Assembly: GCA_963699165.1 (NCBI GenBank)
Contig: OY969413.1
Location: 340,562 to 404,561 of the forward strand
DNA length: 64,000 nt
DNA from: Candidatus Kaiserbacteria bacterium
GTDB lineage: Bacteria; Patescibacteriota; Minisyncoccia; Phycocordibacterales; Phycocordibacteraceae
Direction: 5' to 3'
Numbering within the stretch: position 1 is the stretch's first letter; each line of letters starts with the position of its first letter. The notes under the pieces are model-generated. The model was given only the letters and a program-made list of their open reading frames with translations. It had not been told where the DNA came from and ran no database searches. Both the position numbers and the translations under genes were made by a program. Shown here in pieces: positions 5,694-52,060 of the stretch.

Positions 5694-6398
5694 ATGCACA
5701 AGAATACCAAATTGTTGCCGTACCAACGGCGTGAGATGTTCCGCAGATGGGGTATGGGAGCTCAAGCGACCCATTTGGCCCGAGAATACAAAGTCTCCCG
5801 AGAAACCGTATACGAGACACTTAAAGATGCCCGACTGAACGTCTTCGAGAATCGTTCCTCGATGAATCACCGATATCGCACCATCCTGTACGGGTTCCAA
5901 AAGCTTGCTCGCACCGAAAAGCGCGTGGGAGAGAAGCTCGCCCGCAAAGCCCATCGATTGAACCGATACGAGAAATCGATACCGGGTGAAATGCTGCATC
6001 TCGATACCAAGCGCCTGCCGCTCCTGCGAGGAGAAGCCGCCGCGCAACCGAGAGAATACCTATTTGTCGCCATTGACGACTACTCTCGTACCGCCTTTGC
6101 CGATATCTTCCCCGACAAGACCGCATACTCGGCCGCCATGTTCCTCGCCGAGAGCAAGCGAGTATTGCCGTTCCCCGTGACCGGCATCTATTCCGACAAC
6201 GGGAGCGAGTACCGGGGACGACCGGATCATCCGGTGGCGGCACTCTGCAGGGAAACGGGCATGAGCCAAGCGTTCACGAAAGTGAAGCATCCCTGGACCA
6301 ATGGAAAAGCGGAGCGATTCATCAAAACCCTCATGACCGAATGGCACGGGAAGACACGTTCCAATCACATCTCTCGAGCCCATCGCCGACTGACCTGA
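5694..6398 (+). CDS. IS481-family (rve-type DDE) transposase, apparently 3'-disrupted by the IS3 insertion.
   Basis: N-terminal HTH. DDE core D(HLDTKRL), D(SDNGSEY), E(NGKAERF). Only 234 aa versus 294-347 aa for the other IS481-like ORFs. The stop lies within the IS3 left inverted repeat. Confidence 0.6.
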   Translation: MHKNTKLLPYQRREMFRRWGMGAQATHLAREYKVSRETVYETLKDARLNVFENRSSMNHRYRTILYGFQKLARTEKRVGEKLARKAHRLNRYEKSIPGEMLHLDTKRLPLLRGEAAAQPREYLFVAIDDYSRTAFADIFPDKTAYSAAMFLAESKRVLPFPVTGIYSDNGSEYRGRPDHPVAALCRETGMSQAFTKVKHPWTNGKAERFIKTLMTEWHGKTRSNHISRAHRRLT

Positions 6399-6452
6399 CC
6401 CCCAAATTTCAGACCATGTTCTAGACGGGATTAACCGCTAGAATGACGTCAT

Positions 6453-6710
6453 ATGAAGCAATACCGCATCGCTCCTGAGGTGAAGGAACAAATCATTAAT
6501 CGAATCAAGAACGATGGTGTCACTGTCGCCCAAGCGGCCAAAGAGCATGGTATCCACGAGACCACCATCTATGGCTGGCTTGGTGCGAAAGTGCAAGACG
6601 GTACCGCATCTGTTCTTGAGATTGCGAGACTTCGAAAAGAGAATGACGAACTCCTTCGTCTTGTTGGACTCATGACGCTCAAGCTGTCTGAAACCCAAAA
6701 AAAGAAGTGA
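6453..6710 (+). CDS. IS3 transposase OrfA (HTH).
   Basis: 85-aa HTH protein. Slippery A AAA AAG just before its stop. Confidence 0.75.
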   Translation: MKQYRIAPEVKEQIINRIKNDGVTVAQAAKEHGIHETTIYGWLGAKVQDGTASVLEIARLRKENDELLRLVGLMTLKLSETQKKK

Positions 6711-7519
6711 GCAAAGAATCTCCGATTGGTACGCGCACAACAGCGCGTACTCTTGGTATAGCTCGTTCCACCTTCTGGTATCAAAAGAAGAAGCCTGACA
6801 AAGACTGGGCACTCAAATGCCGTATTGAAGAAGTCCTTCGAGAGTTTCCTTCGTATGGATACCGGAGAGTTGCCCTGTATCTCAAGGAGAACAAAAAGAA
6901 GGTTCAAAGAGTCATGCGACTCTTTGGTATCAAAGCATATCGAAGAAGAGGAAGACGGTGGAGGAAATCAAGGAAACAAGCCGTGGAGTATCCAAATCTC
7001 CTGATGCGGATTGTACCCGCCTATCCGCATCAAGCATGGGTCGCTGATTTCACTCATGTGTATTTCAAAGGGAAAGACATTCGTGTGGCAACCACCATGG
7101 ACGTATACACTCGAAGTGTCGTTGGGCTCGCCATTGGTACGCGAGGTGGAACCGTACTTGTGACGCAGGCATTGTGCGCGGCACTTCTCAACCATCCTCG
7201 TCCCACCATCTTTCACAGCGACAACGGAGTGGAATACAATGCCGCATCCTTCCGAGAGATGCTCATCAATTTCGGCATCAGCATCTCTCGCTCAAAAAAG
7301 GGCTGTCCGTGGGAGAACGGGTACCAAGAATCGTTCTATGGAAAATTCAAAACTGATCTGGGCGATCCCAATCGCTTCGATACGCTTGGTGAACTTGTTG
7401 CTGAAATCTATCAGACAATTCACCGGTACAACACCGTGCGTATACACTCAACACTCAAGATGGCACCGAGAGAGTTTGCGAAATCGCACATCACCCGTAC
7501 ACTATCTTCACTCGTCTAG
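6707..7519 (+). CDS. IS3 transposase OrfB (integrase core), in the -1 frame relative to OrfA.
   Basis: rve integrase core motifs. Frame is -1 relative to orfA, with slippery heptamer cccAAAAAAGaag at ~6697. Confidence 0.75.
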   Translation: MSKESPIGTRTTARTLGIARSTFWYQKKKPDKDWALKCRIEEVLREFPSYGYRRVALYLKENKKKVQRVMRLFGIKAYRRRGRRWRKSRKQAVEYPNLLMRIVPAYPHQAWVADFTHVYFKGKDIRVATTMDVYTRSVVGLAIGTRGGTVLVTQALCAALLNHPRPTIFHSDNGVEYNAASFREMLINFGISISRSKKGCPWENGYQESFYGKFKTDLGDPNRFDTLGELVAEIYQTIHRYNTVRIHSTLKMAPREFAKSHITRTLSSLV

Positions 7520-7557
7520 GAAGTGGTCTGAAGAATAGGGGTCGGTACACGTGGGTA

Positions 7558-8361
7558 TTAAGAACGAGTTGGCACAAGCGTTAATGATTTTAATAAGTAA
7601 GTGCGCGGATTTCCGAACAATTCCGGTGAGGAAAATCTGAAGCAGAATTCCCTCACGTATTGCTCGAGGTTCTCGCTCCAGTGATGATGATACATCCTCC
7701 GCACAAAGGTGCGGTATACGCCGAACACGCCTTCGATTTCGGAGGTATGTTCGAACTCGAATTTTGAATGAATGTCTCTGCTGTGGGAGACCGGCCATCG
7801 CTTGCCGACACCCCGGTATATCGAACCGCCATCGGTCCACAACTCGCTCCCCGGCTTCACTTTGGCAAAGAGAAAGTCCATCACGTCCGTCTTGTTCGGG
7901 AAGCGATTGTGCATGACGGTATAGGCAAGCTTTCTCGTTCCTTTCTGCTTGGCCATCACGAGAGCTGCGTTCTTGAAATATGCCTCGTCCATCTGCACGA
8001 TACGCTCGAGAATATGCTCTTCTTGGGGCAAATGCTCACGAAAGGTGGCATACCAGCGGCGTATCGTTCGTTCAGGCAAATGCGTGAGCTCCATGGCCTG
8101 CAAGACGGGTTCTCGTATCGTCCAGCACCAGAGGAGCATCCACCACGTCTGGAGCGGAAGCTTGAGGTTTGAGAGCCAGGTATGCGAGAGGAGCGAGAAC
8201 CTTCGGCGGCAGGCAACACACCGGTACCGGTCTTCGTACCGCACAATCCTGCGCGAGCGGCAGAGCGGGCAAAACACATTCTTTCCGAACAACGTTCGCC
8301 GCAAAAACTTTCTAATCTGCACTTCAGACGGAATTTGTTTGAGCGTGTACATAGCTTCCAT
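7558..8361 (-). CDS. IS1595-family (ISXO2-like) transposase.
   Basis: N-terminal zinc-ribbon (CPLCRS...CVACRRRF) plus DDE_Tnp_IS1595-like core. Element lies immediately adjacent to the IS3 right end. Confidence 0.7.
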   Translation of the reverse strand: MEAMYTLKQIPSEVQIRKFLRRTLFGKNVFCPLCRSRRIVRYEDRYRCVACRRRFSLLSHTWLSNLKLPLQTWWMLLWCWTIREPVLQAMELTHLPERTIRRWYATFREHLPQEEHILERIVQMDEAYFKNAALVMAKQKGTRKLAYTVMHNRFPNKTDVMDFLFAKVKPGSELWTDGGSIYRGVGKRWPVSHSRDIHSKFEFEHTSEIEGVFGVYRTFVRRMYHHHWSENLEQYVREFCFRFSSPELFGNPRTYLLKSLTLVPTRS

Positions 8362-22423: not shown

Positions 22424-23467
22424 ATGCGCATCAGAAGCAATTTCAGGGGTACGAAGGGCTGGTTGAGCATGTGGGAAAGGACGATACGATTGCGGCATAT
22501 GCGGAAACCAAAGGAAGTCGACAGACGGGTGAAGATATTGGGATTCTGGGACATGCACGGGACGGAGGCCACATACGACGCCTTTGGCACCTCGGAGCGC
22601 ACCTTGTATCGCTGGAAGGAGGAACTCAAAGCCCACGAGGGCCGCATTGATGCACTTGACCCGAAGAGCACTGCGCCGAAGGCGCGTCGAAGGAGGACTG
22701 TTCTGCCCGAGGTCGAGGATTTCATCATCCGCGAACGACAGGCGCATCCCCGGCTTGGGAAAGCAAAGCTTGCCGTTCTCCTGCGCGAAGAAGGGTACTC
22801 CGTGTCGGAGTCATACGTTGGGCGGGTCATTCTGGATTTGAAGAACCGCGGTCTGCTCCCGCAGCAGAGCCGGCTCTCGTTCCACGCACGTACGGGCAAT
22901 CACACGGAAACACCGCAGAAACGCCGTACCAAGCTTCGCCGCACCGGCAAGCGCGGCATGGAGCTCGATACCGTCGTCCGCTTCATCGACGGCGTGAAGC
23001 GGTACGTCCTCACGGCAGTGGACGTGGAGCGGAAGTTCGCCTTTGCGGGCGCGTATACGAACCACTCGTCGAGAAGCGCGGACGACTTCCTTCGCCGAGT
23101 CATCGAGGTCTGTCCCTTCGATATCGACGAGTTGCAGACCGACAACGGGAGCGAGTTCGCCAAACACTTCGAGGATGCCTGTGCCGAACTCGGGCTCACG
23201 CACTTTCACACCCGCCCCCGCACTCCCAAGATGAATGCCCACGTCGAACGATTCAATCGCACCGTCTCCGAGGACTTCATCATGCTGAATCGGGGCCTGC
23301 TGCGGGACGATATTCATTCCTTCAATCTGAAGCTTGTCGACTGGCTGATCTGGTACAACACCAAACGCCCGCACCAGTCGCTCGGCATGGTGTCCCCCTT
23401 GCGGTATATTGTGTGTACATTAACCGTCGGGGACTGCCAAAAGTACTGGACGCGTACACACAATTGA
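22424..23467 (+). CDS. IS481-family transposase.
   Basis: HTH followed by rve core (DNGSEF...HTRPRTPKMNAHVERFNRT). Confidence 0.8.
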   Translation: MRIRSNFRGTKGWLSMWERTIRLRHMRKPKEVDRRVKILGFWDMHGTEATYDAFGTSERTLYRWKEELKAHEGRIDALDPKSTAPKARRRRTVLPEVEDFIIRERQAHPRLGKAKLAVLLREEGYSVSESYVGRVILDLKNRGLLPQQSRLSFHARTGNHTETPQKRRTKLRRTGKRGMELDTVVRFIDGVKRYVLTAVDVERKFAFAGAYTNHSSRSADDFLRRVIEVCPFDIDELQTDNGSEFAKHFEDACAELGLTHFHTRPRTPKMNAHVERFNRTVSEDFIMLNRGLLRDDIHSFNLKLVDWLIWYNTKRPHQSLGMVSPLRYIVCTLTVGDCQKYWTRTHN

Positions 23468-26719: not shown

Positions 26720-26990
26720 GAGTTTATTGTATCGCTTTCACCCGCCTTGTAAACGACGTGTCTCGTGCGGGATAACCCACCTCAAACTGGCTGGGAGACA
26801 AGGACCGCGATTACGCTTATCGCTCCTTACAGGAGCAGTACACCTTAGGGAACGTCGTCGGTTTTACTTGGATAAAGCAAAACCGACGCGAATTCAAGCA
26901 AAAGAAAAGCTGCCCGTGCGGACAGCTTTTCTTGCAGTAATTCATCGTCGAAATCTGCTGATTTCGACGCGATTTTTACGCTTAAAAATC

Positions 26991-27065
26991 GGCTGGGGAG
27001 CTAGGGAACGATCCTAGAGTCTCCTGCTCCAAAGGCAGGCGTGTTACCAGTTACACCACTCCCCA
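26991..27065 (-). tRNA. tRNA-Gln (anticodon TTG).
   Basis: Reverse complement reads TGGGGAGTGGTGTAACTGGTAACACG-CCTGC-CTTTGGA-GCAGG...CTCCCCAGCC. This gives the U1-A72 acceptor pair, and a UGGGG...CCCCAGCC end architecture like E. coli tRNA-Gln. CCA is not encoded. T-loop atypical. Confidence 0.7.
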
Positions 27066-30307: not shown

Positions 30308-31192
30308 ATGGCATACACACAAAACCCGCACATGCCCAAGGTCAGAAGGGATGCTGCAGACATGGTGAGGAGAGGATATACGCCCACCGAGGTTGGCCGT
30401 CGGTTCGGCGTCGGGTCGAGTACGGTATGCAAATGGGTGAAGAAGGCGAAGATATACGGGTATCATCCGATTCCGACGCTCTCATCAAAACCGAGGAATC
30501 ATCCAAACGAGCTGCCGTCGAAGATTGTGAACAAGATTGTCGAGAAGCGTCTCGTACTCAAACGCTCGGCCGAGGTCGTACACCGGGCGCTCGAAGACGA
30601 GGGTGTCTCGGTGTCGCTCTCGTCGGTGAAGCGGACGCTCGGTCGTTTCGGCCTCATCAAAAAGCGGAGCCCGTGGAAACGGTACCACCCGCACTCGGAA
30701 CGTCCGGAAGCCGCATATCCGGGCGCTCTTGTGGAGGTGGACACCATCCATCTGGCACTCCACGGCAAAACGGTTCTGTACGTGTATACACTAATCGATG
30801 TATACAGCCGTTGGGCGTACGCCTGGGCGACCCCGCGCATCAACTGCCGCGTCTCTCTCCTCTTCGTGAAGCGGGCACAGGTTGCGGCACCATTCCTGTT
30901 CGAGTGCGTGCAGACCGACAATGGCCCCGAGTTCTCCATGCACTTCACCGAACGCCTCTCGATACGCCATCGACACACGAGAGTCAGGCAGAGCAACGAC
31001 AATGCGCACGTCGAGCGATTCAATCGCACACTGCGTGAAGAGTGTCTTGATGCTCTTTCGATTGAGATACGGGCAATCAATGCGATTCTGCCGACCTATC
31101 TGAGCGGGTACAACACCACCCGCCACCACTTCGGGCTCGACCTCAAAACGCCGCTCGCCATATTAACAGAATGCGTCCAAGCTATTGATTAG
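30308..31192 (+). CDS. IS481-family transposase (third, distinct family member).
   Basis: HTH followed by rve core (DNGPEF...NAHVERFNRTLREE). Confidence 0.75.
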   Translation: MAYTQNPHMPKVRRDAADMVRRGYTPTEVGRRFGVGSSTVCKWVKKAKIYGYHPIPTLSSKPRNHPNELPSKIVNKIVEKRLVLKRSAEVVHRALEDEGVSVSLSSVKRTLGRFGLIKKRSPWKRYHPHSERPEAAYPGALVEVDTIHLALHGKTVLYVYTLIDVYSRWAYAWATPRINCRVSLLFVKRAQVAAPFLFECVQTDNGPEFSMHFTERLSIRHRHTRVRQSNDNAHVERFNRTLREECLDALSIEIRAINAILPTYLSGYNTTRHHFGLDLKTPLAILTECVQAID

Positions 31193-37022: not shown

Positions 37023-39485
37023 ATGGACAAACGATTGCTTATCGTCGAATCGCCGACCAAGGCGCGTACTATCGGCCAATATCTGGGCAAGGACTATACG
37101 GTTCTCGCTTCGGTCGGCCATGTGCGCGACTTGCCGAAATCAAACAAAGACGCCGTCGATATCGAGGGCGGTTTCGTGCCGCGCTACGTCATTTCCGCAG
37201 ACAAGCGCGAGGTGATTGAAAAAATCGAGCACGCGGCCGCAAAAGTCGCGCCGAGCGAAATCTATCTCGCGACCGACCCCGACCGCGAAGGCGAAGCGAT
37301 TGCGTGGCACATCCAGCAAGTCGCGAAACTCAAAAAACCAAAGCGCGTGGTCTTCCACGAAATCACGAAGGCGGCCATCGAAGAGGCGCTCGCGCATCCG
37401 CGCATGATTGATGAAAATTTGCGCCGCGCGCAAGAGGCGCGCCGCGTTCTCGACCGCATCGTGGGCTACGACCTCTCCGGACTTATCTGGAAAAAGGTGC
37501 GCTACGGACTCTCCGCCGGCCGCGTGCAATCCCCCGCGCTTCGCATACTAGCCGAACGCGAGCGCGAAATTAAGTCCTTCATTCCCGTTACCTATTTTGT
37601 TTTGAAGGCGCTTTTTCGTGCGAAGGACGACGCATCAAACAAAATGGAGTTGCTGACTACGTGCGTAGAACAGCCCGCTTCAAGAGAAGAAGCCGAACGA
37701 ATTGCGCGAATGGGCAAAAGCGCAACGTGGAGCATCGCCGACATCGGCGAACGGGCCGAGGAGCGAAATCCGCGCGCGCCGTTCACGACGTCAACACTGC
37801 AACAAACCGCCTCGACGCGCCTCGGCTTCGCCCCGTCGCGCACAATGCGCGCCGCGCAAAAACTGTACGAAGCGGGCCATATCACCTACATGCGCACCGA
37901 CTCCGTCAATCTCGCGAAAGAAGCGGTTGCAAAAATGGCAGCGGTCGTCGAAAAGGACTTCGGGAAAGAATATCTAAAAATCCGCGCATACAAAACGACA
38001 AGCAAAAATGCCCAGGAAGCGCACGAGGCAATCCGTCCGACCGACCCGCTTCGCGAACATGCCGGCGCGACAGCCGACGAAGTCGAGCTCTATCAACTCA
38101 TCCGCATACGCGCACTCGCGTCGCAAATGGCGGCCGCGCAAATCATGCGCACAACAGTCACCGCAAAAGCCGACGCGGCTAAAGCTGCCGAAGGCAGCTC
38201 GCCCGACGCATCCTCGAGTGATGCGCCTAGGGATATTCCGCCTTTCACCGCAAGCGGCTCACGCACGCTCTTCCCCGGATGGCTCGCGCTCGATACGCGC
38301 GCGCGCGGCGAAGATGTCGAACTTCCAAAACTTGCCGTCAACTCTGCGCTTGAATTGCTGTCGCTTGATACGGAAGAGAAGCAAACCGAGCCGCCGAATA
38401 GATATACCGAAGCCGGCCTCATCAAAGAACTCGAGAAACGCGGCATCGGCCGTCCTTCCACGTACGCCTCTATTATGAAAACCATCGGGGATCGCGGCTA
38501 CGTGGAAAAGCTCGGGCGCGCTTTAAAGCCGACCGCGACCGGCATGGTTGTCTCCGGCTGGCTTGAGGAAAACTTTCCCGAATACGTGAGTGACACATTT
38601 ACCGCCGAAATGGAAAACGAGCTTGACGAAATCGCGCGCGGCGAGCGCGGCTATACGGAAACGCTTTCCGAATTTTACGGGCCGTTTGAGAAAGCCGTGC
38701 AGGCAAAGGACAAACTGCCGAAGGCGACATCGCTCGGCGATGCCGGAAAAGAATTCCCCTGTCCCCTCTGCGGGAGCCCGATGGAATTTAAACTTGGCCG
38801 CGGCGGCATTTTCATGAGCTGCAAGCGGTATCCCGATTGCACCGGGGTGCGAACCGAAGAAGGCACCGAGTTGAAGAGCGATGAGCCGCTCGGCATTCAT
38901 CCGGAAACCGGAGCTCCGATATATTTAAAAAACGGACGTTTCGGACCGTATGTTGAAATGCCCTTGCCGGAACCGGCACCCGAAACGAAAGTCGAGGCCG
39001 CTCCCGTAAAAGGCAAAAGAAAAAGCCGCGCAAAGAAAGTGCGCGTGAATGCAAAACGCGCAACGGTGCCGCCCGGCACCGACCTCGCGAAAATCACGCT
39101 CGCCGATGCGGTCAAATATCTGGCCCTTCCACGCGAGCTTGGCATGCATCCCGTCACCGGCAAACCGGTATTCGCTTCAACGGGACGCTTTGGACCGTAT
39201 GTCGGCAGCGATGGCGAATTTCGTTCGCTTAAGGCCGCCATTGCCGATCCATACACCGTGACGTTCGAGCAGGCCCTTGCGATTCTCGCCGAACCGAAAC
39301 GCCCGCCGAAAGGCGTCGAAATCGTGCGGGAAATAGGCAAACATCCGAAGACCGGAAAATCGCTCGTGCTCTACAAATCAAAGCAGGGTCTGTTCCTCAA
39401 AAAGGGATTGCGCCGCATCTATCTGCCCGAAACGGTAAAAGCCGACTCGCTCACGCCGGAAGAAGTCGCCGAATACCTAAAATAG
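37023..39485 (+). CDS. topA: DNA topoisomerase I.
   Basis: TOPRIM LLIVESPTKARTI. Catalytic Tyr region and C-terminal Zn-ribbons (CPLCGSPM...CKRYPDC). Confidence 0.9.
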   Translation: MDKRLLIVESPTKARTIGQYLGKDYTVLASVGHVRDLPKSNKDAVDIEGGFVPRYVISADKREVIEKIEHAAAKVAPSEIYLATDPDREGEAIAWHIQQVAKLKKPKRVVFHEITKAAIEEALAHPRMIDENLRRAQEARRVLDRIVGYDLSGLIWKKVRYGLSAGRVQSPALRILAEREREIKSFIPVTYFVLKALFRAKDDASNKMELLTTCVEQPASREEAERIARMGKSATWSIADIGERAEERNPRAPFTTSTLQQTASTRLGFAPSRTMRAAQKLYEAGHITYMRTDSVNLAKEAVAKMAAVVEKDFGKEYLKIRAYKTTSKNAQEAHEAIRPTDPLREHAGATADEVELYQLIRIRALASQMAAAQIMRTTVTAKADAAKAAEGSSPDASSSDAPRDIPPFTASGSRTLFPGWLALDTRARGEDVELPKLAVNSALELLSLDTEEKQTEPPNRYTEAGLIKELEKRGIGRPSTYASIMKTIGDRGYVEKLGRALKPTATGMVVSGWLEENFPEYVSDTFTAEMENELDEIARGERGYTETLSEFYGPFEKAVQAKDKLPKATSLGDAGKEFPCPLCGSPMEFKLGRGGIFMSCKRYPDCTGVRTEEGTELKSDEPLGIHPETGAPIYLKNGRFGPYVEMPLPEPAPETKVEAAPVKGKRKSRAKKVRVNAKRATVPPGTDLAKITLADAVKYLALPRELGMHPVTGKPVFASTGRFGPYVGSDGEFRSLKAAIADPYTVTFEQALAILAEPKRPPKGVEIVREIGKHPKTGKSLVLYKSKQGLFLKKGLRRIYLPETVKADSLTPEEVAEYLK

Positions 39486-43910: not shown

Positions 43911-43937
43911 TTGACATATCTATAAGTATGGTATAGC
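43911..43937 (+). promoter_or_regulatory. Candidate sigma70-type promoter (TTGACA, 15 nt spacer, extended -10 TGgTATAGC) driving the structured leader and tRNA-Leu.
   Basis: Read directly. Divergent from cca. Confidence 0.4.
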
Positions 43938-44221
43938 GTAATAATTCCGGCGATTTGCTGGCGCTTAAATGAGGACCTCTGATGTTGAATGCTGTTCGGG
44001 CGTGGTTAGCCCGTCCTCTTCTATGCAAGTTCGGCTTACACGGACAAATGGAGTCCGTCGTTGGGTCTAGGTTCCTAGACCCGTGCAGGAAGGAGTGGTG
44101 GGGGCCGTGTGAACGGTGCCACGTCACGATCTTCGAAATCTGAGCGTCCTCCCCCTGGATTGGTAGGCGCGAGGCGTTTCGTGTGACGCCATAGACACAA
44201 TGCAGAAGTGACACGACACTT

Positions 44222-44280
44222 CTGCTCCGTCTCGAGATGTGTGTCCCGACTGATGAGCTCGAAAGAGCGAAACGGAATGA
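44222..44280 (+). ncRNA. Candidate type III hammerhead ribozyme.
   Basis: GUC cleavage triplet (44229-44231). Stem I ucgaga/ucccga with loop ugugug. Core CUGAUGA. Stem II gcuc-GAAA-gagc. GAAAC. Stem III ACGGA:UCCGU with the conserved A15.1-U16.1 pair. Confidence 0.5.
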
Positions 44281-44315: not shown

Positions 44316-44397
44316 GCCGGGATGGCGGAATTGGTAGACGCAACGGATTCAAAACCCGTCGACGCAAGTCATGAGAGTTCGATTCTCTCTCCCGGCA
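44316..44397 (+). tRNA. tRNA-Leu (anticodon CAA), class II.
   Basis: GCCGGGA acceptor, D-arm, anticodon loop TTCAAAA, long variable arm, GAGAG-TTCGATT-CTCTC T-arm, TCCCGGC-A. No encoded CCA. Confidence 0.85.
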
Positions 44398-45072
44398 CAA
44401 CAGCGAGCGAAGCGAGGCGTTGTGCCGAGAAGCACGGCATCTGCATGCCGTGCGCGAGAGAATCGAATGGCTCGGCCATGTCCGAGGATCTGCGAGGACG
44501 GCGAGCCGGGGTCGAGAGCGCTTAGCGAATTGCGAATGCCTGGAGCAATCCGCTTAGCGACTCGCGGCCGATTCTCTCTCCCGGCACAACAGCGAGCGAA
44601 GCGAGGCGTTGTGCCGAGAAGCACGGCATCTGCATGCCGTGCGCGAGAGAATCGAATGGCTCGGCCATGTCCGAGGATCTGCGAGGACGGCGAGCCGGGG
44701 TCGAGAGCGCTTAGCGAATTGCGAATGCCTGGAGCAATCCGCTTAGCGACTCGCGGCCGATTCTCTCTCCCGGCACAACAGCGAGCGAAGCGAGGCGTTG
44801 TGCCGAGAAGCACGGCATCTGCATGCCGTGCGCGAGAGAATCGAATGGCTCGGCCATGTCCGAGGATCTGCGAGGACGGCGAGCCGGGGTCGAGAGCGCT
44901 TAGCGAATTGCGAATGCCTGGAGCAATCCGCTTAGCGACTCGCGGCCGATTCTCTCTCCCGGCACAACAGCGAGCGAAGCGATGCGTTGTGCCGAGAAGC
45001 ACGGCATCTGCATGCCGTGCGCGAGAGAATCGAATGGCTCGGCCATGTCCGAGGATCTGCGAGGACGGCGAG
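44381..45072 (+). repeat. Tandem array of a 189-bp unit (3 identical copies plus a 4th variant). Each unit begins with the last 20 nt of tRNA-Leu.
   Basis: Unit starts at 44381, 44570, 44759 and 44948. Each unit contains hairpins ggcacaac..gttgtgcc and gcacggcat-ctgc-atgccgtgc. It also has an inverted copy of the T-arm segment (gagagaatcgaa). Confidence 0.9.
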
Positions 45073-45197
45073 AAGGGCTCCCGGTTTGTCCAAGAGCGAA
45101 GCGATTGGTATCAAACCGCAGTCCTGTGAGGAGCGGAGAGCGCTTAGCGAAATGCGAGTCGCCGAAGGGCGCGACGCATTTCGGTTAACGACTCATA

Positions 45198-45857
45198 CTA
45201 CAGCTTTCCCACCAAGTCGAGGCCGGGCTCAAGCGTGTCGCCGCCCGGCTCCCACGATGCCGGACAAACCTTGCCTTTGTGCGTCTCCACATACTGCGCT
45301 GCCTGCAGTTTTCGCAACGTCTCGCTGGCTTTTCGCCCGATTGAATTGTCATTTACTTCCATCGTGCGAAGCGTTCCCGACGGGTCAATGATGAACGTGC
45401 CGCGAAGCGCGAGTCCTTCGTCCGGCGTGAGGGCCGCCTCGCCTCCTTCGATAAGCACGCCGAAGGCATAGGAGAGTTTTCCGGAAGGATCGGCCGCCAT
45501 TGGATATGTGATTTTCTTTATTCCCGCAGACGTGTCATGCCACGCCTTATGGGTGTAAACCGTGTCCGACGATACGGAAATTATTTCGGCGTTCAGCGCT
45601 TGGAATTTCGGATAGAGCGCGGCAAGCTCTTCGAGCTCGGTCGGACAGATGAACGTGAAGTCGGCCGGATAAAACGCAAGCACGACCCACTTGCCGCGGA
45701 GTTTTGACAAGCTCATCGTCTTGATTTCGTCCTCATGATAGACCTCAAATTCGAAGTCCGGCACCGTCTCGCCCACTTTCACCTGAAGCGTAAAGTCGCG
45801 AACCTGGTCGTGGAACTCGCCGCAATGCTCGCAATAATTGCTTTTTGTTTCTTTCAT
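45198..45857 (-). CDS. 2-Cys peroxiredoxin (AhpC/Tsa family).
   Basis: FTFICPTE peroxidatic Cys motif and resolving Cys near the C-terminus. Start at MKETKSNY. Confidence 0.85.
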   Translation of the reverse strand: MKETKSNYCEHCGEFHDQVRDFTLQVKVGETVPDFEFEVYHEDEIKTMSLSKLRGKWVVLAFYPADFTFICPTELEELAALYPKFQALNAEIISVSSDTVYTHKAWHDTSAGIKKITYPMAADPSGKLSYAFGVLIEGGEAALTPDEGLALRGTFIIDPSGTLRTMEVNDNSIGRKASETLRKLQAAQYVETHKGKVCPASWEPGGDTLEPGLDLVGKL

Positions 45858-49976: not shown

Positions 49977-50047
49977 GGGCCTATAGTTTAGAGGTAAAAC
50001 AGTGGTCTCCAAAACCACCGTCCCAGGTTCGAGTCCTGGTGGGCCCG
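49977..50047 (+). tRNA. tRNA-Trp (anticodon CCA).
   Basis: GGGCCTA acceptor, anticodon loop CTCCAAA, T-arm CCAGG-TTCGAGT-CCTGG, TGGGCCC-G. Confidence 0.85.
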
Positions 50048-50093
50048 CAAATCAAAAAACTGCCTTTAGGGCGGTTTTTTGATTTGCGGGCCC
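50041..50093 (+). terminator. Perfect 20-bp inverted repeat including the tRNA-Trp 3' end; likely bidirectional terminator.
   Basis: gggcccgcaaatcaaaaaac ... gttttttgatttgcgggccc. Confidence 0.6.
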
Positions 50094-50228
50094 AAGCACG
50101 CGCGGGGCGCGTGCGTCCAGAACTCGAAAACCTTGCGAGCATATTTTGCGATTTCCTGAAGCAAAATATCCGCAAGGTGTACTGACCCTGTAAGGGCCGA
50201 GAAGCGTAATCGCGGTCCTGGTGTCCCG

Positions 50229-50270
50229 CCAACAAGAAAAACCTGGACTGCTCCAGGTTTTTCTTGTTGG
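50229..50270 (+). terminator. Perfect 19-bp palindromic hairpin with A/T runs (bidirectional terminator-like).
   Basis: ccaacaagaaaaacctgga-ctgc-tccaggtttttcttgttgg. Confidence 0.6.
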
Positions 50271-50425
50271 CGAGTGCGGGAGATCTATCGAGCCAGCGGG
50301 CGACGCATCGTCGTGCTGTCGAGTGCGAGATGGCGAGGCGGGCTCCCGTTTTGTCCACGAGCGAAGCGATTGGTTTACAAACCGCAGTCCTTTAGGAGTC
50401 GCGAAAATTTTCGATCGACCCAAGA

Positions 50426-50912: not shown

Positions 50913-51893
50913 TTACTTGTCCCACACAAAACCGTTCCCGAAATGGCCGTACTTTGACGTCTCGCGAAATTGCGGTTTTCGGAGTTTCAGCAGTTTGATG
51001 ATGGCATGCGGTCGCAAATCGTATCCTTTGATTTCCTCTTGTTTGCCGTCAATCGTAACAACGGCCATAAGCGGCTCGGCAACGCCAATAGCGTAGGCGA
51101 TGTGCGCATACACTTCTTTCGCTTTTCGTTTCTTCAGATAGGCAACCGCGATTTTTCGCGCGATGTATGCCCCGCTTCGGTCCACTTTCGTCGCGTCTTT
51201 TCCGGAAAAACAGCCGCCGCCAAGAGGAACATTTGGGCCGTAGTTATCGACGGCGAGTTTTCTTCCCGTGAGTCCCGTGTCCGCATTGAACCCGCCGACG
51301 AGCCACTCGCCATTCGGATTTTTCAGCCATACTTTCTCAAGCTTCAAACCTTTCGCGAGCAATGGCTCGATTTCTTTTTTGACGACTTTTACAAGCGGCG
51401 AATTTTTACCGTAGTCGGCCTTGCACACCGAAGTCAAAATCGAAATCACGTTGCCGTTATCGACCGTCACTTGCGCTTTGCCGTCGGTTGCTCCCATCGC
51501 CTTGGTGAGTTTCCGCGCAAGCACGACTTCAAGCGGCAAAAGCTCCGGCGTTTCGCTCGTCGCATACCCGACCATAATTCCCTGGTCGCCCGCGCCGTCA
51601 TTATCGACGCCATGCTGGATTTCGGGACTTTGTTCGACGACATTCACCGTAATGCCGATGCCTTCGTTGTAGCCGCACTCTTTGTACACCTGCTCTGCTA
51701 TTTTTCTGATGTTGATGCGCGCCTTCGTCGTAAGCTCGCCGGTAACCGTGATGATGCCGTGGCCGCCGAGCACTTCAATCGCCGAACGCGTATACGGGTC
51801 CTGTGCAAGACATGCGTCGAGAATTGCGTCTGAAATCTGGTCGCACACTTTATCGGGGTGGCCAATTGAAACCGATTCTGCCGTCCTAATCAT
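50913..51893 (-). CDS. metK: S-adenosylmethionine synthetase.
   Basis: GHPDK and GGGCFSGKD motifs; shorter than typical bacterial MetK. Confidence 0.85.
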   Translation of the reverse strand: MIRTAESVSIGHPDKVCDQISDAILDACLAQDPYTRSAIEVLGGHGIITVTGELTTKARINIRKIAEQVYKECGYNEGIGITVNVVEQSPEIQHGVDNDGAGDQGIMVGYATSETPELLPLEVVLARKLTKAMGATDGKAQVTVDNGNVISILTSVCKADYGKNSPLVKVVKKEIEPLLAKGLKLEKVWLKNPNGEWLVGGFNADTGLTGRKLAVDNYGPNVPLGGGCFSGKDATKVDRSGAYIARKIAVAYLKKRKAKEVYAHIAYAIGVAEPLMAVVTIDGKQEEIKGYDLRPHAIIKLLKLRKPQFRETSKYGHFGNGFVWDK

Positions 51894-51919: not shown

Positions 51920-52060
51920 CTCCTTCCGTTTAGGAAAGTGTCTTTATGTAGGAGACATTATCTTTCCCTTTCGGGATTGGATGGAGCACCTTCTTTAATT
52001 TCTTAAAGGGTTGCCGGGAGATTGTCGAGCCAATACTCTACCTCCGCTCTTGATAACGTA
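51920..52060 (-). ncRNA. SAM-I (S-box) riboswitch in the metK leader, with a terminator-like expression platform.
   Basis: Minus strand reads CGUUAUCAAGAGCGGAGGUAGAGUAUUGGCUCGACAAUCUCCCGGCAACC...AAGAAGGUGCUCCAUCCAAUCCCGAAAGGGAAAGAUAAUG. This matches the S-box consensus UUAUCAAGAG.GG.GGAGG.A.UGGCCC.A.GAA.CCCGGCAACC...GGUGC. A hairpin and U-run follow. Confidence 0.85.

Follow-up and report, generated by a model that had tools for sequence, protein, structure and literature searches.

A 189-bp tandem array behind tRNA-Leu(CAA) and a family of small, structured, possibly mobile cassettes in Patescibacteria

Directly after the tRNA-Leu(CAA) gene of a Candidatus Kaiserbacteria genome (Minisyncoccia, Patescibacteria), a 189-bp unit is repeated 3.67 times (44380–45072), each time opening with the end of that same tRNA. 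We asked what kind of element these units are, using the 64,000-nt stretch of DNA that contains them (hereafter, the window) and related genomes.

Organization and fold of the array

TRF detected a single array (44380–45072, period 189, 3.7 copies, 99% matches), in which units 1 to 3 are identical and the repeat-matching part of unit 4 (44947–45072, 126 nt) carries one G>T change, in agreement with the three identical units and one variant described by the first-pass annotation. The features of the locus are as follows.

44224–44278, + strand: candidate type III hammerhead ribozyme (Rfam RF00008, 42.4 bits, E 1e-6)
44316–44398, + strand: tRNA-Leu(CAA) (ARAGORN; Rfam tRNA, 54.5 bits)
44380–44568, + strand: unit 1 (match to type-A core model R1 at 44456–44578, 61.9 bits, E 5e-16)
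44380–44397, + strand: segment X of unit 1, the last 18 nt of tRNA-Leu, from T-loop C56 to the discriminator
44393–44426, + strand: T1 of unit 1, a GCGAAGC-capped hairpin
44419–44430, + strand: X'a of unit 1 (GTTGTGCCGAGA)
44432–44453, + strand: inserted hairpin of unit 1, which splits X'
44456–44467, + strand: X'b of unit 1 (GAGAGAATCGAA)
44469–44507, + strand: P2 of unit 1
44511–44568, + strand: P3 of unit 1
44569–44757, + strand: unit 2, identical to unit 1 (R1 match at 44645–44767)
44758–44946, + strand: unit 3, identical to unit 1 (R1 match at 44834–44956)
44947–45197, + strand: unit 4, variant (families D2 and I7; same tail in loci L002, L164, and L165)
45198–45200, − strand: stop codon of the peroxiredoxin gene

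Each unit had been said to begin with the terminal 20 nt of the tRNA, in the manner of attL/attR duplications. The 20-mer GATTCTCTCTCCCGGCACAA occurs four times, all within the array (0.01 expected), and the direct repetition of the tRNA end therefore stands; however, only its first 17–18 nt belong to tRNA-Leu(CAA), the last 2–3 nt being trailer. An inverted T-arm copy, GAGAGAATCGAA, was likewise found in every unit as proposed, together with a second inverted piece, GTTGTGCCGAGA, which complements TCCCGGCACAAC at all but one position. As to the attP-like architecture suggested, the inverted copy is no conventional attP arm: it pairs with the direct copy, closing a conserved, covarying three-way-junction core.

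From X through T1 and X' to the end of the 5' half of P2, unit 4 matches the other units at 125 of 126 positions. It then carries an additional GAGCGAAGCGA-capped hairpin (the C segment, 45073–45133) and a diverged P3 (45136–45195), so that its diverged core runs past the array to 45197, and it has no terminal X2 (a second direct copy of X); it is probably the oldest copy of the array. An independent metagenome-assembled genome of the same strain (GCA_049279115.1, locus L002) contains unit 1, the variant unit 4, and the same tail, amounting to 1.67 copies and exactly 378 bp less than in the window; the difference between 3.67 and 1.67 copies may represent true copy-number variation or short-read collapse. 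This disagreement between two assemblies of one strain would fit an array expanded by assembly error, an explanation that we find scarcely credible, given that the full unit, the G>T variant, and the tail are present in both assemblies, that collapsing three identical 189-bp units in short reads gives exactly 1.67 copies, and that homologous cassettes occur in many other genomes.

Open reading frames of 252 aa (+ strand) and 217 aa (− strand) cross the array, and the former exists as a deposited protein. Two exhaustive searches (5.8 billion proteins and 1.84 billion cluster representatives) matched it only to itself, which speaks against a protein-coding repeat and agrees with the earlier view that the long frames are artefactual. 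The neighbouring genes encode the CCA-adding enzyme, tRNA-Leu, peroxiredoxin, and MiaA. Neither Phage_integrase nor Resolvase domains were detected in the scanned window ORFs of at least 180 aa, array neighbours included, and no gene for an HUH nuclease, TnpB, or an IS110-type enzyme was found in the window. When synteny was followed through the CCA-adding enzyme, relatives at 69–77% identity had other neighbours and no tRNA-Leu nearby.

The unit folds at −97.7 kcal/mol, with z-scores against shuffles of −4.8 (+ strand) and −6.4 (− strand). The sequence GAGCGAAGCGA occurs six times in the window against 0.12 expected, always on the sense strand and inside these elements; GCGAAGC is a hyper-stable DNA mini-hairpin reported at single-strand initiation sites (PMC13037366). 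X' can pair in two ways: with X, forming a long hairpin through T1, or with X2, in which case the resulting helix P1 closes the core. The two pairings become one and the same helix if the unit is circular or tandem. The junction of a unit circle would read ...GACTCGCGGC/CGATTCTC. In the predicted fold of the tRNA with one unit, X' invades the T-arm and the acceptor 3' strand, and the tRNA 5' strand pairs with X2. Because T1 of the window copy has no U-run and no terminator separates tRNA-Leu from the units, the array is probably co-transcribed with the tRNA. Searches with Rfam 15 (E up to 1) gave no ribozyme or other match inside 44380–45197, and Rfam matches across the window and 19 related loci comprised only tRNAs, one hammerhead, and one SAM riboswitch, with none to the core.

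The hammerhead candidate lies 38 nt upstream of tRNA-Leu and probably shares its transcript. Its score is below the RF00008 gathering score of 48.5, but the CUGAUGA and GAAA core, three helices, and a GUC triplet are all present, with one A.C mismatch in stem I and predicted cleavage after GUC, between 44231 and 44232. The 24-nt core and stem II are identical in two IMG/VR phage contigs, and stems I and III covary across these three sequences; the match at locus L009 scored 44.5 bits. No hammerhead was found upstream of tRNA-Leu in the relatives examined, and it does not characterize the cassette family described below.

A cassette family at tRNA genes and topA

All three tRNAs of the window carry cassettes, the array behind tRNA-Leu having a type-A core and the other two a type-D core (core types were named A to E). 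A 43-nt module is common to the tRNA-Trp and tRNA-Gln cassettes.

49977–50270, + strand: second cassette, at tRNA-Trp (sequence reading), with the following parts
49977–50048, + strand: tRNA-Trp, followed by terminator T1
50085–50094, + strand: X'a
50095–50115, + strand: hairpin
50118–50129, + strand: X'b
50130–50216, + strand: type-D core
50216–50231, + strand: decayed X2, followed by terminator T2
26787–27065, − strand: third cassette, at tRNA-Gln (27065–26991), with a type-D core ending in the shared module (26843–26801), plus a decayed copy of the tRNA 3' end

The unit belongs to a large family found at many different tRNA genes and at topA. Scans of genomes and metagenome contigs with local parsing showed the same architecture in other Patescibacteria, at tRNA genes for Leu, Trp, Tyr, Ser, Arg, Gly, Met, and Lys as well as within the 3' end of topA, with several cassettes per genome. 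The order is X, a hairpin or terminator, X' (inverted X), the three-way-junction core, and X2, within 115–210 bp. X' and X2 vary with the upstream gene, the arms always being derived from the local gene; this also holds at tRNAs that the search patterns did not select for (Trp at L027, L052, L063, L089, and L156; Leu-GAG at L092; Tyr at L141; Ser at L142; and Lys at L145). About half of the direct repeats are 18–24 nt long, extending from C56 to the tRNA end plus 1–3 nt, and many X2 copies lack their acceptor part. By our reading of the T1 sequences, an estimated 60% or so of relatives have an intrinsic terminator with a U-run between the gene and X'/core.

Nested or serial cassettes were observed at L156, L114, and L152, with an intact core beside the tRNA and remnants farther off, and tandem second units at L144 and L131, where both contigs break within them. 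Locus L064 has an identical tRNA-Leu and no cassette; L051 also has an identical tRNA-Leu, with no X' in the 87 nt left before the contig end.

Alignment of the cores showed that P1, P2, and P3 are conserved with covariation around a branched fold whose junction nucleotides are conserved as well. Of the cells, 94.5% were paired, against 80% after shuffling and approximately 45% with the partner slid; both sides had changed in 16 of the 27 pairs, and none of 500 shuffles reached the observed values. G.U pairs far exceed A.C, one G.U being conserved, and the structured strand is therefore the sense strand of the gene. At E values up to about 1e-3, every tRNA-linked match of model R1 (26 of 26) lies downstream of the tRNA on its strand, 23 at a distance of 22–75 nt; of the others, one, at 148 nt, is the latter core of a tandem pair, and two are window units 2 and 3.

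In five genomes, a type-A core lies inside the topA 3' end with the same order of X, hairpin, X', core, and X2. Here X2 is a 60–90-nt second copy of the coding end with the reading frame kept. In four of the five (L114, whose X2 is truncated, is left out), X and X2 differ at 8–12 synonymous and only 1–3 non-synonymous codons of 20, whereas only about 20% of random changes are expected to be synonymous. Both copies thus look shaped by coding selection in these four genomes. A gene end replaced by an element-borne copy has a precedent in prophage e14 at icd, which the topA pattern matches (PMC6379469). A search for an empty topA allele in the L029 species, with the protein bearing the X2-encoded tail as query, returned no same-species protein, the best match being 82% identical.

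Exact 24-mers of the unit had no match in genome contigs (GTDB representatives, among which the source genome evidently is not) or viral contigs, the type-A core and X..X' patterns had none in IMG/VR, and blastn of two units had none in phage and plasmid collections. Around 38 cassette loci, the recurrent neighbour families were housekeeping only (ParB, TopA, and RelA/SpoT), with no recombinase, HUH nuclease, TnpB, or IS110-type protein among them. We found no description of such elements in the literature. The cassettes form a previously undescribed family of tiny, highly structured, non-coding elements in many bacteria of the candidate phyla radiation.

Mobile cassette or structured RNA

Our leading interpretation, to which we assign a probability of roughly 45%, takes the 189-bp unit to be a mobile but non-autonomous DNA cassette, one that inserts at the T-loop position, restores the gene end, and has here been multiplied in tandem. 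Under this proposal, the cassette would bring X, the 3' part of the target gene in working form, and X2 would be the original end, displaced to the far side of the cassette. Integration would occur at a fixed point, before T-loop C56 or before CGAAAAC in topA, and would restore the gene end as prophage e14 does in icd. A folded single-stranded form would probably act, the X/X' stem mimicking a duplex target, with recombination by an enzyme supplied in trans; the array may have arisen by repeated integration beside the tRNA or by unequal crossing-over between X repeats. One architecture at no fewer than eight tRNA species and topA, with arms matching the local gene, is consistent with this proposal, as are the sense-strand covariation, the position of the core matches downstream of tRNAs, the selection on both topA copies, the nested, serial, and tandem arrangements, and the absence of a cassette from L064. 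The GAGCGAAGCGA excess and GCGAAGC hint at single-stranded DNA. The earlier idea of a miniature integrase-dependent element survives insofar as a non-autonomous element is a live explanation; no tyrosine or serine integrase was found in window ORFs of at least 180 aa or among recurrent neighbours; an integration hot spot with independent remnants, also suggested, is ill-suited to three identical units. Against mobility stand the absence of recombinase, HUH nuclease, TnpB, and IS110-type genes from the window and recurrent neighbours, of an observed excised circle, and of a filled and empty pair in any one species. In addition, a double-stranded circle of 125–230 bp would be hard to form, and the proposal does not explain how X' and X would be rebuilt once a core type reaches a different gene.

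Other points against a mobile cassette lead to RNA. Conserved junction nucleotides are typical of functional RNAs, a T1 without U-run, with the array probably transcribed alongside the tRNA, also suits an RNA role, and long-term coding conservation of topA X and X2 could instead result from the two copies being used in alternation at the RNA level. In the main rival explanation, which we judge unlikely, the core with P1 would be a structured RNA, produced when transcription from the tRNA or topA promoter reads through, and would act in cis or trans. For instance, X' could control how the 3' half of the tRNA folds, how it is processed, or how stable it is, or the products could be small RNAs with tRNA-like ends, the array raising their dosage. 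Covariation with G.U bias on the transcribed strand and the absence of a terminator behind the window tRNA-Leu agree with this; the predicted fold has X' invading the tRNA, and X' could therefore gate tRNA folding. The hammerhead candidate would set a defined 5' end. The processed multi-unit RNA of the first-pass annotation remains a rival; no ribozyme was found inside the unit. A U-run terminator before X' and the core in approximately 60% of relatives is odd for co-transcription, however, and an RNA role fails to explain an in-frame topA end copy with synonymous-only differences, nested and serial cassettes, or the presence of one core type at many genes, each time with arms rebuilt from the gene concerned; moreover, no Rfam family matches. 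Still within RNA, X-T1-X'-core might be excised from read-through transcripts like an intron, so that the gene body becomes joined to X2 and the excised segment possibly circular, while the internal X would keep unspliced or terminated transcripts functional too; we consider this improbable. The T-loop insertion point is a known position of archaeal tRNA introns, the tRNA 5' acceptor strand pairs with X2 in the predicted fold, a circular unit yields one consistent structure, and topA X and X2 look coding-selected in the four genomes with full-length X2. Splicing to the many acceptor-less X2 copies would nevertheless make dead tRNA, no known ribozyme or intron family matches, and no conserved terminal G, guide pairing to the 5' exon, or bulge-helix-bulge motif was seen; we know of no splicing enzyme in these bacteria. 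The hallmark by which tRNA-integrating islands are recognized is direct repetition of the tRNA 3' end. The units could also be a functionless attL/attR remnant of an integrase island or prophage, deleted to 189 bp and amplified by slippage or unequal crossing-over. Unit identity implies recent local amplification, and the upstream hammerhead is of phage type. A dead scar is nonetheless very improbable in view of a core conserved with compensatory changes across distant Patescibacteria and many genes, a size that is always 115–210 bp, the lack of an integrase remnant among the scanned window ORFs, and the lack of similarity to phage and plasmid records or IMG/VR contigs.

Several further candidates were discarded: template and variable repeats of a diversity-generating retroelement (X and X2 do not differ specifically at adenines), descent from a mature tRNA (X2 as a rule has no following CCA), group I or II introns (no matching features), translational bypassing (inapplicable to tRNA genes), template switching during replication that yields a simple inverted triplication (which leaves conserved cores common to different genes unexplained), MITEs, whose inverted repeats are fixed (cassette arms vary with the target), and type III toxin-antitoxin (ToxI-like), CRISPR, or TIGR arrays (period 189 nt, identical units, no spacers, and no such gene adjacent).

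Comparison with known systems

If the mobile-cassette proposal holds, these are among the smallest integrating elements known and show how a gene-less element could target essential genes safely through its own copies of the gene end and target sequence. A more far-reaching version, which we regard as doubtful, would make them a new class of minimal mobile element: a gene-less, single-stranded circle of 115–210 nt (DNA or RNA) with X' as target guide or mimic and a three-way junction recruiting a host enzyme, inserting at tRNA T-loops or topA with the gene end regenerated, the array serving as template for unit circles. If they are RNAs, core types A to E would be new structured RNA families linked to tRNA biogenesis in a poorly understood radiation. 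In either case, many tRNA genes of the reduced Patescibacteria genomes (about 1 Mb) are flanked on their 3' side by cassettes, which affect tRNA gene annotation, metagenome contig breaks, false protein calls such as the 252-aa ORF, and possibly tRNA expression.

As proposed for the cassettes, tRNA-integrating islands and prophages, including prophage e14 and phage 21 in icd, insert at one set position towards the 3' end of a tRNA or protein gene and bring a replacement gene end, leaving the displaced end as a downstream direct repeat with mainly silent differences (PMC6379469). The direct tRNA-end repeat of islands is found here (18 nt plus trailer, four times; mode in relatives 18–24 nt), whereas a nearby recombinase gene and a kilobase size with genes are not. 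Islands and prophages span kilobases with their own integrase next to attP; the cassettes are 115–210 bp and gene-less, and contain instead an inverted target copy and a conserved three-way junction.

Integron cassettes with attC share the succession of core site, short cargo, inverse core, structured centre, and core site. In integrons, a folded single strand brings core and inverse core together as a pair, and arrays extend from a primary site that stays fixed, so that the newest copy lies nearest to it; the same is proposed here. Structure may be conserved above sequence in the cassettes as it is in attC, since P1, P2, and P3 covary, but their junction sequence is conserved too. Unlike integrons, the array has no intI, attI, or Pc beside it, its boxes are 8–24 nt taken from the target gene instead of the 7-nt GTTRRRY core, and, unlike attC, its centre is branched with conserved nucleotides and its cargo is only a gene end and a hairpin. 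The borders read GCGGC/CGATTC or GTGAC/CGATTC, the paired boxes are the tRNA-derived GAGAGAATCG/CGATTCTCTC, and no RYYYAAC/GTTRRRY attC boxes were found.

CTX-phi and other Xer-dependent integrating elements (IMEX) may offer a likeness in their single-strand stem imitating a duplex target, tandem arrays, and host recombinase in trans, but they target dif, span kilobases, and carry replication and phage genes, and there is no dif-like site at the cassettes. CIMEs and MITEs are similarly small, non-coding, present several times per genome, and dependent on functions in trans; in MITEs, the terminal inverted repeats are fixed and the target duplications short, whereas cassette arms vary by site and equal the 3' part of the neighbouring gene. 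Retrozymes, satellite hammerhead repeats, and viroid-like circular RNAs resemble the array in their tandem units of 150–350 nt and compact branched rods. The likeness extends to a hammerhead candidate that probably shares the transcript of the array, but that single candidate lies outside the array and is absent from relatives, and no self-cleaving motif was detected within the unit.

Array and transcript context of tRNA-Leu

TRF analysis recovered the tandem array of 189-bp units after tRNA-Leu described in the first-pass annotation (44380–45072; period 189, 3.7 copies, 99% matches), with no difference among the sequences of the first three units. A fourth unit of 126 nt carries a single G>T change relative to the others and is followed by a 125-nt diverged tail that extends as far as the stop of a convergently oriented peroxiredoxin gene. 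The neighborhood is made up of housekeeping genes: topA, relA/spoT, parB, and the CCA-adding enzyme gene, the locus itself, then peroxiredoxin and miaA. As that annotation had also noted, each unit begins with the 20-mer of the tRNA-Leu end, which occurs four times in the window, only within the array (0.01 expected), and whose first 17–18 nt are the tRNA-Leu end from T-loop C56 to the discriminator. The inverted T-arm segment was likewise found in each unit, with the complement of the tRNA-Leu end split into two pieces (GTTGTGCCGAGA and GAGAGAATCGAA), and the predicted fold of the unit, two hairpins plus a Y-shaped domain, was far better than that of shuffled sequence (z of −4.8 on the + strand and −6.4 on the − strand).

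Features of the tRNA-Leu region and a further window RNA
44316–44398, + strand: tRNA-Leu(CAA) (ARAGORN, Rfam)
44371–45129, + strand: 252-aa ORF (NCBI/ENA protein deposit P0001)
44224–44278, + strand: type III hammerhead candidate (Rfam 42.4 bits, gathering score 48.5, E 1e-6)
51955–52059, − strand: SAM riboswitch (57.4 bits) upstream of the S-adenosylmethionine synthetase gene (50913–51893, − strand)

Both long ORFs across the array are artefacts that arise because the unit period is divisible by three, as had been supposed. Searches of 5.8 billion proteins and of 1.84 billion cluster representatives found no relative for the 252-aa ORF, and the deposited protein P0001 is a false gene call.

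In another MAG of this strain (L002, GCA_049279115.1), the locus comprises a complete unit followed by the identical variant unit and tail, so the duplication is real. An assembly artefact, which had been named as a refuting outcome and has the unequal copy number of the two assemblies in its favor, is extremely improbable given this shared duplication. The L002 locus is shorter by 378 bp (two units), which could be true variation or short-read collapse. Two short-read contigs from the same organism (L164, L165) stop exactly inside the "C segment" hairpin (window ~45081), suggesting that this hairpin recurs elsewhere in the genome or differs between strains.

Because the hairpin/terminator (T1) of the array has no U-run and a weak promoter-like site lies at 43911–43937 (our reading; not called by the scan), the array is probably co-transcribed with tRNA-Leu. 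The hammerhead candidate lies 38 nt upstream of tRNA-Leu and has one A.C mismatch in stem I; hammerheads in two IMG/VR phage contigs (L009, 3676–3730, and L008) have exactly the same core and stem II, and stems I and III covary across the three sequences. It was absent from the tRNA-Leu upstream regions of relatives. One Logan contig (L001, SRR27973122) ends exactly inside the hammerhead (window ~44272), which suggests that the population contains additional copies or variants of it. From the putative promoter to the hammerhead runs a ~290-nt leader (43940–44231, + strand) that folded better than shuffles (z −3.6) and had no Rfam match; hammerhead cleavage would release it as a separate RNA.

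Cassettes at the 3' ends of tRNA genes

A scan with the tRNA-Leu 3' 18-mer, covering one genome per species, returned many tRNA-Leu genes, and in several Patescibacteria a second copy of the tRNA 3' end lay 115–175 nt after the tRNA with an inverted copy between. The comparison with related genomes revealed the same layout beyond the window, and a metagenome scan for "T-arm 3' half, 30–60 nt, its complement" yielded 33 loci sharing it after tRNA-Leu, Trp, Arg, Gly, and Met. When the fetched loci were parsed, a sequence complementary to the 3' half of the tRNA's own T-arm lay within 160 nt for 37 of 201 tRNAs (about 1 expected by chance, by our calculation). These included unselected tRNAs with differing T-arms (Trp in L027, L052, L063, and L156; Leu-GAG in L092; Tyr in L063; Ser in L142), and in each the inverted copy (X') and the second direct copy (X2) both matched the respective tRNA, so the arms are target-derived. 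The general order of these cassettes is the 3' part of the gene (X), T1, X', a structured core of 50–150 nt, and X2; five core types were observed.

Core types of the cassettes
Type A: AARGNCCGGAG...GAGGNGGGGTCG...GTGAC; L045, L124, L131, window unit
Type B: AAAGGCTTTTCC...GCACCTGGCTAYGTAGTAGC; L029, L052, L134
Type C: AACTGGGAAAGGGAGAAAAC...GGAGCGAAGCGACG; L132, L145, L151, L155
Type D: AAGCC-hairpin-GGGTACTG-hairpin with TGTAA loop; L052 Trp, L086 Tyr, L135 Gly, window Trp and Gln
Type E: AACTCGG...GACTGCCCCGGGC; L138, L143

Several copies occur per genome: all three window tRNAs are occupied, since tRNA-Trp and tRNA-Gln also carry cassettes, both of type D.

49977–50270, + strand: tRNA-Trp type-D cassette
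26787–27065, − strand: tRNA-Gln type-D cassette
44405, 44594, 44783, 44972, 45094, and 50359, + strand: GAGCGAAGCGA sites, all inside cassette elements

One 43-nt module (GTGTACTGnnCCTGTAAGGnnCGAnAAGCGTAATCGCGGTCCT), whose hairpin shows a compensatory change, is common to the Trp and Gln cassettes, and the left part of the Trp cassette is the same as in the Leu unit (X'a, AGCACG...CGTGCG hairpin, X'b). Read on the sense strand, the unit hairpins have GCGAAGC-containing caps (GAGCGAAGCGA), found six times in the window and on the + strand only (0.12 expected); the same cap occurs in cassettes of other genomes (L063, L135, L137, L141, L144, L148) and in type-C cores. GCGAAGC is a hyper-stable DNA mini-hairpin of single-strand initiation sites (PMC13037366), and the caps fit, without proving, a single-stranded DNA stage.

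About half of the direct repeats are 18–24 nt long, spanning C56 to the tRNA end plus 1–3 nt, as expected if only the gene part need be identical. Three loci (L156, L114, L152) have an intact core beside the tRNA and, farther out, either what is left of the 3' part of a different type or a partial tRNA-3' copy, an order expected if new insertions land next to the gene. Second tandem units were found in L144 and L131, both on contigs that break inside the repeat, and arrays may be under-reported as contigs end in repeats. L064, with an identical tRNA-Leu, has a plain terminator and no cassette, and no X' was found in L051 within the 87 nt before the contig end.

The cassettes encode no enzyme. 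The only recurrent neighboring families were ParB, TopA, and RelA/SpoT, and IMG/VR and the phage and plasmid collections gave no cassette matches. A Pfam scan of window ORFs of at least 180 aa returned no tyrosine or serine recombinase domain, so the cognate integrase that had been proposed was not found there; only IS-type DDE transposases were present, at least 14 kb away. Literature searches returned no description of such cassettes. The IS load is notable for a ~1 Mb genome, with four rve-type DDE and one IS1595-type transposase ORFs, none beside a cassette.

5694–8361, 22424–23467, and 30308–31192: transposase ORFs, rve-type DDE and IS1595-type

Type-A core structure and its copies in topA

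In an alignment of 11 type-A sequences, including the window unit, the junction motifs were invariant, and the fold was a three-way junction in which P1 pairs X' with X2, P2 has a small internal loop, and P3 has a conserved G.U pair. Paired cells amounted to 94.5% on this structure vs 80% for shuffled alignments and ~45% with the partner slid; both sides changed in 16 of 27 pairs, and none of 500 shuffles matched the observed values. G.U pairs were far commoner than A.C, so the structured strand is the gene's own. The type-A covariance model (R1) gave window units 1–3 a score of 61.9 bits apiece and also matched numerous loci elsewhere. Every one of the 26 tRNA-linked matches with E ≤~1e-3 was downstream of the tRNA (Leu, Ser, Tyr, Trp, Met, Lys) on the same strand. 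The distance from the tRNA end was 22–75 nt in 23 cases; the remaining matches are window units 2–3 and, at 148 nt, the distal core of a tandem pair in L065. No Rfam family matched the cassette core regions. In the structural model, P1 and the X/X' hairpin become a single helix when the unit is circular or tandem, and one predicted fold explains both pairings.

The fourth unit looks like the oldest copy of the array: it lacks X2, its P3 has diverged with compensatory changes, and an additional hairpin lies where P2 and P3 meet. A 70-nt repeat at 45064–45133 and 50329–50398 (+ strand; 62/71 identical), a hairpin with the GAGCGAAGCGA cap, sits at the P2/P3 junction of type-A-like cores, namely this unit and a core-like stretch 3' of the tRNA-Trp cassette.

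Type-A cores were also found within the topA 3' end of five genomes, at the same codon (...MEGT|KTIPERC...); the window's own topA (37023–39485) has no such insertion.

Type-A cores in topA
L029, 1157–1361
L093, 5093–5200, − strand
L114, 4651–4738, − strand
L149, 6084–6174, − strand
L141, 9550–9658, − strand

The order is as in tRNA genes: coding end with stop (X), hairpin, X' (AAAGTTTTCG), core, and second coding end (X2), with a duplicated C-terminal stretch of 20–29 codons. The X2 frame is open to the stop in four loci and truncated after about eight codons in L114. In those four, X and X2 differed by 8–12 synonymous codons and 1–3 non-synonymous ones, whereas random change would give ~20% synonymous; differences in X2 between genomes were also largely synonymous, most clearly in closer pairs and the first 11 codons. 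Because the differences are mainly synonymous, both copies appear from their sequences to be shaped by coding selection. A precedent is prophage e14 in icd, which on integration supplies the gene with a substitute end, both copies staying functional as the element comes and goes or when it arrived recently from a relative (PMC6379469). Many TopA homologues in Patescibacteria are entered as "partial" proteins on short contigs; we suspect that topA 3'-end cassettes break assemblies there.

Proposed mobility, alternatives, and known systems

Our best explanation, at a probability of roughly 45%, is a non-autonomous mobile cassette amplified at tRNA-Leu. Such DNA would integrate at a fixed point, before C56 or, in topA, before CGAAAAC, and its own X would restore the gene. 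Within a folded single strand, X' would turn the X region into a duplex that mimics the double-stranded target, and an enzyme supplied in trans would use the core as its handle. The array itself could stem from repeated integration beside the tRNA or from unequal crossing-over between X repeats.

A structured RNA acting on the tRNA or downstream genes would account for the sense-strand covariation of the core, its conserved junction bases, and the predicted invasion of the tRNA by X', but terminators sit before X' in most relatives and RNA structural need alone does not explain the duplicated topA coding end, making this unlikely. Intron-like removal at the RNA level would agree with selection on both gene ends; with no intron or ribozyme features, and with the acceptor part lost in many X2 copies, we consider it quite improbable. 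The direct repeats of the tRNA end would also be left by a dead att scar amplified by slippage, which the conserved, covarying core makes very unlikely. A MITE was rejected since cassette arms vary with the target, as were a ribozyme satellite and CRISPR, TIGR, and ToxI arrays for the tRNA-Leu array.

The attL/attR reading of the first-pass annotation held for the direct end-repeats. The mobile cassette would act like elements that integrate at tRNA genes or other gene ends, but it lacks an integrase and is far too small. CTX-phi attP and integron attC sites work by a folded strand that imitates a duplex target. That a gene-less, target-mimicking single-stranded element constitutes a new class is a tentative and rather doubtful proposition; the cassettes share their order of parts with integron cassettes and differ from them in having no attI, integrase, or GTTRRRY boxes.
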